64,000 bases of DNA, taken from Clostridiaceae bacterium (GTDB lineage: Bacteria > Bacillota > Clostridia > TANB77 > CAG-508). Under the pieces are notes generated by a model that did not search any database, was not told the DNA's origin, and worked only from the letters and a program-made list of their open reading frames with translations. Where the stretch lies: assembly GCA_021771025.1 (NCBI GenBank), contig JAETPW010000003.1, positions 108,010 through 172,009 of the forward strand, given 5' to 3'. Made by a program: the position numbers and the translations under genes. Positions 15,458 to 24,269 of this stretch are shown here, piece by piece. Within the stretch, counting starts at the first letter, position 1. Every line of letters starts with the position of its first letter.

Positions 15458-16321
15458 ATGTCATTTGTGGTAGCCATTGATGGACCAGCAGGAGCAGGAA
15501 AAGGAACCATTACTGAATTAGTAGGTAAGCAAGTAGGACTAGTGAATATCGACACAGGGGCGACTTTTCGCTGTGTTACTCTAGCAATGATTAAGAATAA
15601 GATTAAGTTAGAAGAGGAAGAAAAAATAAAAGACCTATTAGCCAGTATTCATATTGACTTAAAAAAAGAAGAAGGAGAAGAAAAAGTTTATTTAGATGGC
15701 GAAGATGTCACAAAACAAATTCGTGAAAAACAAGTAAATGACTTAGTATCTCCAGTATCTACGATTAAAATCGTAAGGGACAATTTACTCCTACTGCAAC
15801 GCAAGATGGCAGAAGGAAAAGATGTCATCATGGAAGGAAGAGATATAGGCACAACGGTTTTCCCTGATGCACAAGTCAAAATCTATTTAACCGCAACAGC
15901 AGAAGAAAGAGCCAGAAGACGTGTAGAACAAAACAAAGAGAAAGGAATAGAAACCACCTATGAAGAGGCACTAGCCAATGTAAAAGCAAGAGACAAAATG
16001 GATTCAGAACGAAAACAAGCACCATTAAAACAAGCCGAAGATGCTATCTGCATCGATAGTACCCAAATGAATATCTCAGAAGTAGCCCGCGAAATCATCA
16101 AAATCATTGAACAAAAAAGAATAGAAAATGTATATGAAGTAGGATTACCATCATATCTGCAACATGACATAGACCAATTTATCGAAGGAAAAAAGAGTAA
16201 TTCAAGTGTTTTAGATTGCTATTTCGACGAATTATATGGTTCAATTAATTCAGCCTACTATTCAGATGAGATCACTGAAGATCAGGCCAATTACCTACGT
16301 CATAAATATCTATTTAAATAA
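15458..16321 (+). CDS. cmk: Cytidylate kinase with fused 65-aa C-terminal antitoxin-like domain
   Basis: AIDGPAGAGKGT, MEGRDIGTTVFPDA, YLTATAEERARRR; extension GLPSYLQ...ELYGSINSA...QANYLRHKYL. Confidence 0.93.
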   Translation: MSFVVAIDGPAGAGKGTITELVGKQVGLVNIDTGATFRCVTLAMIKNKIKLEEEEKIKDLLASIHIDLKKEEGEEKVYLDGEDVTKQIREKQVNDLVSPVSTIKIVRDNLLLLQRKMAEGKDVIMEGRDIGTTVFPDAQVKIYLTATAEERARRRVEQNKEKGIETTYEEALANVKARDKMDSERKQAPLKQAEDAICIDSTQMNISEVAREIIKIIEQKRIENVYEVGLPSYLQHDIDQFIEGKKSNSSVLDCYFDELYGSINSAYYSDEITEDQANYLRHKYLFK

Positions 16322-16345: not shown

Positions 16346-17260
16346 ATGGATTTCACCCCTTATCTACAACAAAATATACCTCGTTTTTATGGAGGAAGTA
16401 ATGGAAATAAACGTGCTATCCAGTTAGAAAATAATAATATCTATATGCTAAAATTCCCTCCTATTGCCAAAGATACACAAAATTTAAGTTATTCCAATAG
16501 TACTATATCCGAATACATCAGTTGCCAAATTATCGAAAGTATGGGGCTAGAGGTACAAAAAACAAGACTGGGAAAAGTGAACATAGAAGGAAAAGAAAAA
16601 ATAGTAGTAGCCTGCCAAGATTTTACCCAAGATGACAGTAAACTATATGAATTTGCGATGATCAAAAACGGATGTATTTGTTCTTCTCAAAATGGATACG
16701 GAACTGAATTATCAACGATATTATCAGCGATTGAAGAACAAACTATCTACCCACCAGAAAAAGTAAAAGACTATTTTTGGGATTTATTTATTCTTGACGC
16801 ATTTTTAGGCAATTTTGATAGGCACAATGGAAATTGGGGATTTTTGATTAACGAAAAAACAGGAGAAATAAAGCTAGCTCCCATCTTTGACTGTGGATCT
16901 TGCTTATTTCCCCAGTTAGATGACGAAATGATGGAAAAAATTCTTCAAGACGAAAAAGAAATGGAGCTGAGAATTTATCAATTTCCTAATTCAGCCTTAA
17001 AAGAAGAAGACAAGAAAATCAATTATTTTGGGTACATATCTAGCTTAGCTAACCAAGACACCAATGAAGCCTTAAAAAGAATATTTCCTAAAATCGAGTT
17101 AAAAAAAGTAAATTCAATCATCGAAAAAACGCCTTTTATTAGTAAGATTAGAAAACAATTTTACCAAGAGATATTAACCAAACGATACGAAAAAATACTA
17201 GAATACAGTTACCATAAATTATATATCCAAGAAAGCAAAGAGAAAGAAGGAATGAACTAG
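16346..17260 (+). CDS. HipA/CtkA-like kinase (putative toxin)
   Basis: YGGSNGNK, YMLKFP, SEYI, NFDRHNGNWG, APIFDCGS. Confidence 0.88.
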   Translation: MDFTPYLQQNIPRFYGGSNGNKRAIQLENNNIYMLKFPPIAKDTQNLSYSNSTISEYISCQIIESMGLEVQKTRLGKVNIEGKEKIVVACQDFTQDDSKLYEFAMIKNGCICSSQNGYGTELSTILSAIEEQTIYPPEKVKDYFWDLFILDAFLGNFDRHNGNWGFLINEKTGEIKLAPIFDCGSCLFPQLDDEMMEKILQDEKEMELRIYQFPNSALKEEDKKINYFGYISSLANQDTNEALKRIFPKIELKKVNSIIEKTPFISKIRKQFYQEILTKRYEKILEYSYHKLYIQESKEKEGMN

Positions 17261-19860: not shown

Positions 19861-19946
19861 CATTAAGCAGATAGTAGGAATAAACTAAGCAAAGTCATAA
19901 TAAAAGCAATATGAAAAAGAAAAAAGGGAAGAGAGGAAAGATAACC

Positions 19947-20552
19947 ATGGATCAAGAAGAATTACAAAAAATCAAACAAAAAGCGTTAGCAGAGCACATC
20001 CCTATCATTATGGATGATACATTACAAGTCATTGACCAATATTTACAAGAAAATAAACCCCAAAAGATCCTAGAAATAGGAACAGCAGTAGGCTATTCTG
20101 CGATGTGTTTTTCCTCATTTTTGCTTGATGGAGGAAGAATCGATACCATTGAACGAGACGAAGAACGAATAAAAGAAGCAAAAGAAAATGTCAAAAAAGT
20201 AGGAGTAGCTGATAAAATTAACATTTGGGCAGGAGACGCAGTAGAAATCTTGCCAACACTAGAAGAAAAGTACGATATGGTCTTTATTGATGCAGCTAAA
20301 GGAAAATATCCATTTTTCCTAAGCCAAGCTTTACGACTTTTATCTCCAACAGGAATCATTTTTGCCGATAATGTGTTATATAAAGGATATGTAATGGGAG
20401 ACTACAATAAGCACAAACAACGCACAGCAGTAAGAAATTTACGTGAATACATTAAAGAAGTAACTGAAAACCCAGAATTAGAAACTGAAATTTTGGAAGT
20501 AGGGGATGGGTTAGCCATTACCAAAAGAGAAGTGCATTCTCGCAAAAGTTAG
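19947..20552 (+). CDS. O-methyltransferase (TrmR/YrrM-like)
   Basis: LEIGTAVGYSA, FIDAAKGKY, DNVLYKG, GDGLAI. Confidence 0.9.
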   Translation: MDQEELQKIKQKALAEHIPIIMDDTLQVIDQYLQENKPQKILEIGTAVGYSAMCFSSFLLDGGRIDTIERDEERIKEAKENVKKVGVADKINIWAGDAVEILPTLEEKYDMVFIDAAKGKYPFFLSQALRLLSPTGIIFADNVLYKGYVMGDYNKHKQRTAVRNLREYIKEVTENPELETEILEVGDGLAITKREVHSRKS

Positions 20553-20717: not shown

Positions 20718-22739
20718 TTAAATCATAAACGATTCATCATCTACCAATTCAGAAACAGAAAATTCATCATCAGAGAATGGGTTACTCATCTCATCAAGAT
20801 TATCATAAGGCTGTCCGTAAAGGATCTGATACAATTCTTTAGGGTTAAAAGTATAAGTGCCAATTTCTTCGTCTGCTTTTTTAAAAACAGTGATAACTCT
20901 ACCCAAAACATCAGATAAGTTAACTCCAGGAGTATTAATGAGTGCTAAAATATCATCATTTGTAGCAGAATTAGCGAACTCCTGATAGCGATTTTTCTTA
21001 TGAAAATCATGCCCCATAGTAGTTGAATCATCTTCTGCCATATCGTTCATTAAAAGAGTACGCTTTTGACTTTCCATAGCAAAGCCTGATTGCTTAAATT
21101 CAGATTTAGTACTAGATTTGTTACCCAATCTTCTCATCGGATAGAAAATTGAATCATGAAGAGATTGATATCCATTTAATTTAGGCATAGCAATATAATC
21201 TTTTCTCTTTCTGGAAATATGAACGATACCATGCTTTTTATAAAAGTCTTCTTCTAAATTCTCTAAATGATAAATTGCTTTAATTAAACTTGGTTCATCA
21301 TATTGGTAAACCTCAATCTGATGTTTAGGATCATGAACTAAAGAAGAAATATCATGAAGATTACCATCTTCATCTTCAATAGAAATAGAATTTGAATTCT
21401 TATCATGATAAATTTGTAAAACATTGAAAAAGGTTTGGCAATTGGTTTCAAGATCAGTAGACTGAATAGCATCTCGTAACAAAGTTAAATGACCATTTTC
21501 ATCTTTTTTTGCATTTTCAAACTTTCTTTGCTGTGAAGAAAGTTCAGAAGAATAGAGAAGATCTCTTTCATTAAGTATTTGCTCTTTTCCATCAATCATA
21601 ATATATTTTACGTGATTTTCTTTCGTTTTAATATCTTCAGGAGAAAAGGAAAAAGCAGAGTGAACAATTTGCTTCTTTCCATCAGTATTATAACAATACA
21701 GTTTTCCCTCTTCATAAGATACATCAGTTAACGGAAAATGAATACTACGTATAACAGGACGATGAGCAAATAAATCTTCAGTTCGACCGAAATGCTCTAC
21801 TAATTTTTTACTCAGGTCAGGAGATAAAGAATTTATCATTTTTGAAAATTTATATTGCTGCTCCTGAAGGGAATAAGAATATAAAAGAGAAGATAATAAA
21901 GAATAAGATACACTAGACTGGTCTCCCAAATCATTAATCAACTGTTCAATAGATTCCTGTTCCTGATCTGTATGAAAAGAAGAAAGTAAAGAATCAATGG
22001 AATTTTCTAAATGAGAAACATCGAAACCATTGAGTTCTAAAAACTCTTTTATACGATCTTTTTTCATCACGAACTCATTTTCATCAAAATGTTCCATTAG
22101 ATTCATTATTTTTGTATAAGAAGATTGTTGTTCGGATTTTTCTAAAGTAGATACTAATAGAGAATAATCATCAAGAGCGAACAACTCTGGATTTTGTTTT
22201 ATACGAGTTAACAAAGAATATACGTTCAAATTCTTATTTGGTAAAGACAATTTAGCACAACAGGTATTTAGCTGATCCATTAGTTGCTGAATAATTAAAG
22301 GGTCTTTTTCCTGTGATAAAATATCAGAGATATATTTGTCATGTAAAAACCAAAAAATTTTCTTCTTTTTCGCTTCTTTATCCTGTAAAAACTTTTCATA
22401 GGCTTCTTTATCTTTTGTCGATTTATTTCGATTTTCTCTTAATCCATTTTGATGATAAATGGTTTTAAGATTAGGAAAAAACAAATCAAGATTATCTTTC
22501 AAATATAAGAGAGTTTTGGTAAAATAACTAGGTTTAGCCTTTAATCTACCAGTTAAAGAAAAATCCACAGAAGGACATTCTTGAACTAAATAGGTATATA
22601 ATTTTTTCATATACGTTTCATAAAACATAAAATATTCATTGGAATATGTATGGTATGTACTAATAAAAATATCAGGATCAATATCACTATTAATTTTTTT
22701 GAGGGATTGAATAAAATTATTTTCGATAATGGAGTACAT
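20718..22739 (-). CDS. Stand-alone RelA/SpoT-type synthetase domain protein with two large insertions
   Basis: GRLKAKPSYFTK (aa 64-75), DLFAHR (aa 322), KDYIAMPKLNGYQSLH (aa ~513), ESQKRT..M..MAE (aa 556); AAAGGTGA SD. Confidence 0.75.
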   Translation of the reverse strand: MYSIIENNFIQSLKKINSDIDPDIFISTYHTYSNEYFMFYETYMKKLYTYLVQECPSVDFSLTGRLKAKPSYFTKTLLYLKDNLDLFFPNLKTIYHQNGLRENRNKSTKDKEAYEKFLQDKEAKKKKIFWFLHDKYISDILSQEKDPLIIQQLMDQLNTCCAKLSLPNKNLNVYSLLTRIKQNPELFALDDYSLLVSTLEKSEQQSSYTKIMNLMEHFDENEFVMKKDRIKEFLELNGFDVSHLENSIDSLLSSFHTDQEQESIEQLINDLGDQSSVSYSLLSSLLYSYSLQEQQYKFSKMINSLSPDLSKKLVEHFGRTEDLFAHRPVIRSIHFPLTDVSYEEGKLYCYNTDGKKQIVHSAFSFSPEDIKTKENHVKYIMIDGKEQILNERDLLYSSELSSQQRKFENAKKDENGHLTLLRDAIQSTDLETNCQTFFNVLQIYHDKNSNSISIEDEDGNLHDISSLVHDPKHQIEVYQYDEPSLIKAIYHLENLEEDFYKKHGIVHISRKRKDYIAMPKLNGYQSLHDSIFYPMRRLGNKSSTKSEFKQSGFAMESQKRTLLMNDMAEDDSTTMGHDFHKKNRYQEFANSATNDDILALINTPGVNLSDVLGRVITVFKKADEEIGTYTFNPKELYQILYGQPYDNLDEMSNPFSDDEFSVSELVDDESFMI

Positions 22740-22822
22740 AAAATCACCTTTCTTTCCTTATATCTACCTAGTAATTAGTATAACAAAATTAGAAAGAAAA
22801 AACAAGTGGACATAAAACAAAA

Positions 22823-22851
22823 TTGACAAAGAGGATAATTTTTTATATAAT
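22823..22851 (+). promoter_or_regulatory. sigmaA promoter upstream of the U32 peptidase gene
   Basis: TTGACA-17-TATAAT exact consensus. Confidence 0.85.
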
Positions 22852-23030: not shown

Positions 23031-24269
23031 ATGAAACCAATCGAACTATTAGCCCCAGCAGGTTCCTTTGAAAAAGCCAAAACAGCATTTTTATACGGAG
23101 CAGACGCCGTCTACTGTGGGACATCATCATTATCCTTAAGAACAAGAGCCGATATGGGAAATGAAGATTTAATAAAAACCATAGAATATGCTCATCAAAT
23201 AGGAAAAAAAGTCTATGTGACCTTAAATATATTTGCTTGGGACGAAAAATACCCAGAAATCATAGAAATGGCTAAGATACTAGAAAAAATTAGACCAGAT
23301 GGAATCATTGCCTCAGATGGGGGAGTAATGGAAATCTTAAAACAATATGCCCCACATGTAGATATCCATGTTAGTACACAAGCAAATGTTGTTAGCTTGC
23401 AAGCAGCAAACTTTTGGTATAAAAATGGAGCCAAAAGAATGGTCATGGGAAGAGAATTAAACAAAGAACAATTAAGCTATATCATGAAAAATAAACCAGA
23501 AGATATGGAAATAGAAGTATTTATCCACGGAGCATTATGTTTTGCCTATTCAGGAAGATGTTTCCTCAGTGATTTTCTATCCGGAAGAAGTGCCAATTTA
23601 GGAAGTTGTTCGCAAAGCTGCCGTTGGTCGTATCAATTGTATGCAGAAGAAGCAAACAACCCGGGAGAATATATGCCCATTGAAGAAAACGAATATGGAA
23701 CAAGCATATTCTCCTCAAAAGACCTATGCTTAATCAAAGAAATCCCAGAATTGATAGAAATGGGAGTAGATAGCTTAAAAATTGAAGGAAGATTAAAAAC
23801 AGACTACTATATTGCGAGTGTAGTCAGTAGTTACCGAGCAGCCATTGATGATTATCAAAAAGATCCTGATCATTATGACTATACAAAGTATTTAACTGAA
23901 CTAGAAAAAGTCAAAACAAGAAAATATACCACCTACTATTTTAATGACAGAAATAACCAAGAACTACAAGATTATAGTGGAAAACAATATAATGAAAACT
24001 ACGAATTCGGAGGAAAAGTAATTAGGCAAGAAGAAGGAAAAGTCATGTTAGAAATCAAAAATAAATTACAAGTCGGAGACGAAATGGAAATCCTTATTCC
24101 GGGCCAGTTAGCTCCATATCCCTTTACGATTAATCAATTATGGGATAGTGAAACACAAGAAGAAATCACTAGCGTAAGCCCAGGGGTAAAAGGGCAACAA
24201 GTCATCATGACAATTCCCATTCCAGTAGAGAAAGATTGGATTTTGAGAAGAAAAAAAGTTACTGCCTAA
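23031..24269 (+). CDS. U32 family peptidase (TrhP-like tRNA hydroxylation protein)
   Basis: ELLAPAG, HGALCFAYSGRC, CSQSCRW, SLKIEGR. Confidence 0.93.
   Translation: MKPIELLAPAGSFEKAKTAFLYGADAVYCGTSSLSLRTRADMGNEDLIKTIEYAHQIGKKVYVTLNIFAWDEKYPEIIEMAKILEKIRPDGIIASDGGVMEILKQYAPHVDIHVSTQANVVSLQAANFWYKNGAKRMVMGRELNKEQLSYIMKNKPEDMEIEVFIHGALCFAYSGRCFLSDFLSGRSANLGSCSQSCRWSYQLYAEEANNPGEYMPIEENEYGTSIFSSKDLCLIKEIPELIEMGVDSLKIEGRLKTDYYIASVVSSYRAAIDDYQKDPDHYDYTKYLTELEKVKTRKYTTYYFNDRNNQELQDYSGKQYNENYEFGGKVIRQEEGKVMLEIKNKLQVGDEMEILIPGQLAPYPFTINQLWDSETQEEITSVSPGVKGQQVIMTIPIPVEKDWILRRKKVTA

Follow-up and report, generated by a model that had tools for sequence, protein, structure and literature searches.

The locus and its split synthetase gene

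In the window (the whole stretch of 64,000 nucleotides of clostridial DNA analysed here), the gene for a RelA/SpoT-type synthetase of 673 amino acids, P0001, lies antisense between the genes for a TrmR-like methyltransferase and a U32 protein, where the earlier note on this DNA had placed it. The locus comprises the following features:

19911..20552, plus strand: left flank, a TrmR-like O-methyltransferase (Pfam Methyltransf_3), which we take to be TrmR
20718..22739, minus strand: split RelA/SpoT-type synthetase P0001, 673 aa (ORF calls, Pfam, AlphaFold model, structural alignment)
20721..20804, minus strand: acidic tail, aa 646-673, low confidence, net charge -10 (AlphaFold, charge count)
20805..20969, minus strand: C-terminal subdomain, aa 591-645, helices and a beta hairpin (model, alignment)
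20997..21074, minus strand: motif 4, E556-K581, catalytic Glu, Gln and His-x-x-x-Lys (alignment)
21156..21203, minus strand: motif 3, K513-H528, KDYIAMPKLNGYQSLH, Rel-type G-loop with Y524 (alignment, profile matches)
21303..21731, minus strand: insert 2, aa 337-479, predicted SH3/Tudor/Sm-like beta barrel with extra hairpins, net charge -11 (AlphaFold, structural search)
21759..21776, minus strand: motif 2, DLFAHR, D322-R327, putative Mg-binding Asp and start of strand 2 (conservation)
21789..22478, minus strand: insert 1, aa 88-317, predicted all-helical (AlphaFold model)
22515..22550, minus strand: motif 1, aa 64-75, GRLKAKPSYFTK, with R65, K67, S71 and K75 as the putative ATP donor site (conservation)
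22744..22750, minus strand: Shine-Dalgarno-like AAGGTGA, 4 nt before the ATG (read directly from the DNA)
22777..22805, minus strand: possible promoter of the P0001 gene, TTGTTT, 17 nt and a TG-extended TATACT, weak (by eye)
22823-22851: consensus sigma-70 site ahead of the U32 gene (promoter scan)
23031..24269, plus strand: right flank, U32/TrhP-like protein (Pfam, NCBIfam)

The possible promoter of the P0001 gene is absent from the output of the promoter scan, and the slot contains no second ORF of at least 60 aa that could be a partner of this gene.

The four RelA/SpoT motifs occur in the order and at the positions that the earlier note had reported (motif 4 reads ESQKRT at 556 and GHDFHKK at 576-582), and their residues are conserved in 22-24 of the 24 homologues in the family alignment, which consists of representatives from a 50% library, with one row truncated. 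R65, K67, S71, K75 and D322 are invariant throughout, so the motif match is above chance; position 327 is Arg or Lys in 23 homologues, and K513, Y515, P519, K520, H528, E556, Q558 and K581 are kept in 22-23 rows. The loss of D322, the G-loop segment and E556 in homologues had been named as grounds for abandoning the assignment, and this is not what is found: D322 is retained in 24/24, H528 in 22/24, and E556, like Q558, in 23/24. The SYNTH residue set (R-x-K-x3-S-x3-K, catalytic Asp, G-loop Tyr and E-x-Q) is present in P0001. The two closest full-length homologues are 76% and 70% identical, and a word-index search with the family alignment yields no further ones.

In eight close genomes, simple pairwise counting gives a dN/dS of 0.22 for the gene overall and 0.03 at motif 2, with values of 0.29 and 0.31 in the inserts compared with 0.06 for trmR; no region exceeds 1, and at similar dS the gene has about 4.5 times the dN of trmR. 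The catalytic residues of P0001 are under purifying selection.

The Pfam RelA_SpoT match covers residues 497-569 only (E 6e-7, above the cut-off), so that Pfam and NCBIfam detect just the C-terminal half of the synthetase. In agreement with the earlier note, no HD, TGS, ACT or intein family is listed by Pfam at E<=1; no Hint family is listed either, insert 1 is predicted to be helical, and insert 2 SH3-like. P0001 has the composition that defines a small alarmone synthetase (SAS), that is, SYNTH without HD and without TGS or ACT, according to Pfam, NCBIfam and the model. The only HD_4 match in the genome belongs to a separate long Rel, and P0001 lacks the combination of HD hydrolase and C-terminal TGS/ACT domains that defines a long RSH.

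The gene appears to be correctly assembled. One near-identical contig (run X3, possibly the source of the window) covers the whole stretch, and near-identical pieces from three other runs, among the four compared, lie across the P0001 gene, which excludes an assembly chimera. Where the organism is named, the runs that contain the sequence are mouse or rat gut metagenomes, bar one coded label; no RNA data set is listed among them. Copies interrupted by a frameshift or stops make up 3/26 in the genus, compared with short trmR frames in 3/61 genomes, and excess pseudogenization of the slot gene is not claimed. At window position 20527, near the 3' end of trmR, three of the four runs carry one extra A, so a one-base deletion or an assembly error may have displaced the C-terminus of trmR in the window.

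Two inserts in a predicted Rel-type domain

The distance between the motif 1 Arg and the catalytic Asp is 257 residues in P0001, and that between the Asp and the G-loop Tyr is 202, compared with 23 and 44 in the host's own Rel, and 19-26 and 57-59 in insert-less relatives. The net inserts therefore amount to about 230-235 and 145-158 aa. The earlier note had given about 250 and 190 residues; the two large inserts are borne out, but these figures correspond to motif spacings rather than insert lengths.

The AlphaFold model built with 24 sequences (pLDDT 83.9, pTM 0.79) finds its top structural matches among Rel SYNTH domains, with Z of 12.7-13.5 (Streptococcus equisimilis 1vj7/24io, Staphylococcus aureus 7oiw, Bacillus subtilis 8acu, Thermus thermophilus 6s2u). 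The alignment to 6s2u extends across both inserts, with 1.9 Å over 132 residues in the model range 26-566, and the N-terminal helices align to the linker helices of Rel itself (model 3-576 to 24io 186-341). RelP/RelQ (5ded, 6ewz, 6fgk) follow at Z 9.7-12.7, and CapRel (7ztb, 9erv) at 9.8-9.9. Since Rel SYNTH ranks first and the alignment spans the inserts, the four motif segments are predicted to reassemble into one Rel-type catalytic domain around the two inserts, which is the single nucleotidyltransferase fold for which the earlier note had suggested a structural check. Foldseek with the whole model returns nothing at E<=0.001, with RelP/RelQ matches of about 75 columns at the top, and no viral structure matches at that threshold. 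In the family profile's PDB matches, 18/19 are of the Rel/RelA/RelP/RelQ type, and FaRel2 and CapRel are absent.

Modelled alone, insert 2 reaches a pLDDT of 93.6. Its structural matches are confined to Z 5-6.8 and comprise SH3, Tudor, Sm and BAH barrels, the best (6.8) being a mix of BAH, Pelota, Tudor and TraI, and Foldseek yields nothing at E<=0.001. Given the lack of a Foldseek match and the mixed low-Z hits, only the common barrel shape, and no function, is claimed for this insert, and assignment to a specific fold family was dropped. The structural matches of insert 1, obtained as part of the whole-model search, are weak. An origin of insert 1 by internal duplication was considered, but the hints are weak (best hhalign probability 14%), and this is not claimed.

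The clade forms a size series that includes insert-less proteins of 246-275 aa, barrel-only forms of 366-451 aa, members with both inserts of 490-567 aa, and three proteins of 673-678 aa, P0001 among them, in which the helical insert is tripled. Insert 1 spans about 65-90 aa in most double-insert relatives and is near zero in insert-less ones. The C-terminal subdomain is common to the whole clade, insert-less members included, and acidic tails occur in many members. In P0001, the N-terminus carries a net charge of -3. Three barrel-only members (L020:544-1758, L146:1318-2535 and L160:79-1434) have a third insert of about 40-80 aa inside the G-loop.

The slot between trmR and the U32 gene

The clade profile matches 26/338 genomes of the genus, and in 25 of the 26 carriers the gene is antisense with a trmR and/or U32 flank, the remaining one lying just beyond U32. 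At the family level, 49/400 genomes match at a looser cut-off, and in 22 of 26 inspected loci the gene has trmR or U32 as its direct neighbour. The residence of the clade in this slot thus spans many genera of one Clostridia family; four other families of the order yield no match to the profile in 125 genomes, and the class-level matches are 10 frames of 697-861 aa, over the core only, which presumably represent long Rel. The earlier note had regarded the gene as apparently inserted. This impression is not borne out: the synteny just described, together with host-like composition (GC at the 18th and GC3 at the 29th percentile of the host range), leads us to reject a recent horizontal insertion. 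Across the genus and family loci inspected, no antitoxin-like neighbour is conserved, and the insert-less relatives occupy the same slot singly, again without a visible antitoxin-like partner.

The slot content was surveyed in 60 evenly drawn genus genomes, of which 55 were read downstream of trmR, two were not fetched, and three were known carriers. Synthetase-like genes of other classes occupy the slot in 38/55; in 8/55 it is empty, with trmR directly beside U32, another 8/55 show a different arrangement or a contig end, and 1/55 has a long RSH. With the three known carriers added, 41/58 genomes have a synthetase-like gene in the slot, and these belong to at least four very different classes. 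The other classes are S (about 210-370 aa), H (510-730 aa, with a helical insert after the Asp), M (about 400 aa) and one odd form. Motif order and modest profile matches (best segment at E about 7e-5) were the basis for assigning H and M, and Pfam RelA_SpoT is found in only 1/21 of the larger slot proteins (385-732 aa, long Rel excluded), so that these assignments are less firm than that of S. Judging by motif spacings, large domains have been gained at the same loops in different slot classes.

Several slot genes deserve separate mention. Class H proteins (L086, L091, L099, L116, L121, L122, L126, L135 and others) are missed by Pfam and have an altered G-loop, K-x-N-G-F-x-A-x-Y-Y. Tandem slots occur in five genomes with two different classes and in one with two S-class genes (L099, L124, L127, L129, L132, L084). 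The long RSH (L137:3769-5475, genome G661) is a 568-aa protein with HD, TGS and ACT and an altered motif 1, encoded in the sense orientation. A 333-aa synthetase-like protein, also in sense after trmR (L092:704-1705, genome G455), carries its insert after the G-loop, ahead of the catalytic Glu, and is not recognized by Pfam.

Genomes whose flanks (trmR and U32) are 89-97% identical bear either the P0001 class or class H, with no nucleotide match in the slot; for instance, between G702 (P0001 class) and G196 (helical class), trmR is 97% and U32 94% identical at the nucleotide level, and the slot genes give no blastn match. In a tree of the unlinked rel gene from 10 genomes (88-95% identical), the three class H carriers are not monophyletic (AU p=0.005), and G421 groups with G326 (bootstrap 98). 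The slot class tracks the flank tree beyond chance, with 23 changes compared with a shuffled mean of 34, which indicates that class exchange is occasional. This swapping is most simply read as replacement by recombination through the conserved flanks; alternatively, an ancestral tandem may have undergone differential loss that left the classes interleaved, and tandems of other class pairs do exist. A core tree (60 columns and 74 rows, two sequences omitted because their motifs gave no anchor) is weak at its deep nodes, which affects both the choice between insert gain and loss and the relations among classes.

Relation to known synthetases and possible function

The catalytic part of P0001 resembles Rel SYNTH in its catalytic residues, the KDYIxxPKxNxYQSxH G-loop and the pre-SYNTH helices. 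Unlike long Rel, P0001 contains two large domains inside the catalytic domain and a clade-specific C-terminal subdomain. It is stand-alone and lacks a hydrolase, like RelP and RelQ, but is three times longer, and the host has a separate RelP/Q-like gene. RelP and RelQ have a C-terminal four-helix oligomerization bundle according to the available part of PMC11782079, whereas the C-terminal region of P0001 is modelled as a hairpin with short helices (pLDDT 62-92). The same source, in its available part, lists R64, K66, S70, K74, D90, R95, Y128 and E145 as FaRel2 site residues, onto which P0001 residues map one-to-one, with an identical donor-site pattern and spacing. Compared with FaRel2-type toxSAS, P0001 has a different G-loop and no basic N-terminal patch. 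The conserved adjacent antitoxin gene that marks bipartite toxSAS is missing at P0001 and at homologous loci. The true FaRel2-like gene of the host, whose G-loop differs from that of P0001, is located elsewhere beside a Panacea gene (L004:645-2070, G000 contig C14; a 213-aa toxSAS directly upstream of a 270-aa Panacea-domain antitoxin).

Like CapRel, P0001 combines a synthetase with extra domains in one gene that lacks a partner, but these domains are internal inserts rather than a C-terminal pseudo-zinc finger. In CapRel, the latter includes a three-stranded sheet, according to the available part of PMC9712102; the P0001 model has only two C-terminal strands (614-620 and 626-630), and YXXY is replaced by Y645-D-N-L, with Y/F-x-x-Y/F present at this site in many relatives. 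Thus, by the pseudo-zinc-finger and YXXY tests, P0001 is not a CapRel, and the analogy to CapRel drawn in the earlier note survives only in the sense that P0001 may work like one. The available part of Jimmy et al. counts 30 SAS subfamilies. The literature searched, with most subscription papers outside its scope, contains nothing on inserted synthetase domains, this slot or PDC-S33. The architecture of P0001 is absent from the libraries and literature searched, in keeping with the new stand-alone SAS-like architecture proposed in the earlier note, and P0001 is an RSH synthetase without hydrolase, neither a long RSH nor a bipartite toxSAS.

The active site is intact and constrained, so P0001 likely moves pyrophosphate from ATP. 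R65, K67, S71, K75, D322 and E556 would bind the ATP donor and Mg, and a guanine nucleotide would be the acceptor at the Rel-like G-loop. This acceptor is favoured by the Rel-type loop and close matches, the different loop of the host's FaRel2-like protein, and the acidic N-terminus and barrel. Kurata et al., in the available part, report no clear sequence signature for toxSAS that act on tRNA, which means that sequence alone does not identify the acceptor. The barrel, carried on the strand-2 loop, may serve in binding or sensing, and the helices of insert 1 beside the catalytic Asp may tune access to the active site. The earlier note had suggested autoinhibitory inserts, an idea that is weakened by the insert-less relatives: these sit in the slot without an antitoxin-like partner, so the clade apparently does not need inserts for tolerance, and any restraint probably lies within the protein and predates the inserts. 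For the same reason, the clade-wide C-terminal subdomain would be a better candidate for built-in restraint, and the inserts are more likely to add sensing or input specificity than to act as a lock.

The host genome also encodes the long Rel, the RelP/Q-like enzyme and the toxSAS-Panacea pair, and the slot can be empty, so the P0001 gene is accessory. We tentatively favour, at somewhat less than even confidence, the view that P0001 is a trigger-activated, self-restrained (p)ppGpp-type synthetase at an immune-like swap locus, a defence-like effector that would stay quiet until triggered and then cause growth arrest by pyrophosphate transfer. Conflict loci are characterized by fast evolution, domain gain and allele exchange, and the resemblance of the slot to such loci is what suggests defence. 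That the trmR-U32 interval is a polymorphic immune locus, in which a synthetase chassis repeatedly gains unrelated in-fold sensors such as the SH3-like barrel or helical bundles and whole alleles are exchanged between species, is a more doubtful proposition. PADLOC matches P0001 in the shared synthetase core only (PDC-S33, aa 488-563) and none of five co-inserted neighbour genes; phage genomes searched with the insert-less relative P0027 give no match, and in PHROGs there is nothing for P0001, with one unnamed family matching 5/24 members. The hold of the clade on the slot across many genera counts against defence in that it also suits a stable accessory stress enzyme.

Such an enzyme, a stress (p)ppGpp synthetase with a RelP/RelQ-like role, in which the inserts are regulatory or tolerated and the slot varies by relaxed constraint or loss, is a serious if rather unlikely alternative. 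The Rel-type G-loop, the best structural and sequence matches to housekeeping synthetases, the old residence across the family, purifying selection throughout and the host-like composition fit this role; the presence of Rel and a RelP/Q-like enzyme in the same genome, the swapping of mutually unalignable classes between flanks that are 89-97% identical and the repeated gain of large domains at the same loops do not. Catalytic death or decay of a synthetase that accumulated insertions could account for the interrupted genus copies but appears extremely improbable given the invariant catalytic residues, the strong constraint at motif 2, the confident fold of insert 2 on its own and the short frames that trmR shows as well.

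Two further possibilities involve toxicity. P0001 could be a self-gated, CapRel-like toxin that pyrophosphorylates the tRNA 3' end or another non-guanine acceptor, with the barrel binding RNA or a phage protein. Sm/Tudor-like barrels often bind RNA, the gene stands without a partner next to tRNA-modification genes, CapRel is among the structural matches, and many relatives have Y/F-x-x-Y/F near the C-terminus; also, the missing signature of tRNA-using toxSAS in the available part of the source leaves room for this acceptor. CapRel, however, scores below Rel and RelP/Q, neither it nor FaRel2 is among the PDB matches of the profile, P0001 lacks YXXY and the three-stranded pseudo-zinc finger, and its acidic N-terminus and barrel contrast with the basic tRNA patch of FaRel2 in the available description, so that a tRNA toxin appears quite unlikely. 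Polymorphic loci are typical of competition toxins, and the slot is polymorphic, so P0001 might also be an exported or contact-delivered effector against other cells, in which the inserts or the acidic tail would help in delivery or in binding the target. According to the available part of PMC12691689, exported enzymes can be encoded by isolated synthetase genes that lack an immunity partner, and P0001 is isolated as well; the barrel shows a weak resemblance to the translocation-signal domain of TraI (Z 5.3), and acidic tails are widespread in the clade. Export seems very unlikely, with no hydrophobic signal peptide visible in the P0001 sequence, no secretion-linked domain detected by Pfam or NCBIfam, and N-terminal helices that align to those of the Rel linker; a Z of about 5 denotes merely a common arrangement.

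With such different synthetases in close relatives, the slot is likely to be an undescribed, fast-changing defence or stress-sensing locus. Annotation largely overlooks its repertoire, since the Pfam match is broken by the inserts. The known control of these enzymes relies on flanking domains or separate antitoxins, and in P0001 folded domains are predicted to be grafted inside the catalytic domain; the natural series of forms with no insert, the barrel only, both inserts and an expanded insert makes the role of each insert directly testable. The alternative synthetase classes in the slot of close relatives bear on the question of why bacteria carry many SAS. Should the immune-locus reading be true, these proteins would form a class of RSH defence effectors that are programmed by their inserts, work without antitoxins and largely escape standard Pfam scans.

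Elsewhere in the window, a HipA-like kinase gene (16346-17260, plus strand; Pfam HipA_C, E 4e-11), noted together with the short frame ending at 16321, follows cmk; the cmk ORF is unusually extended at its C-terminus, and this extension could represent an antitoxin that is fused or made by read-through.
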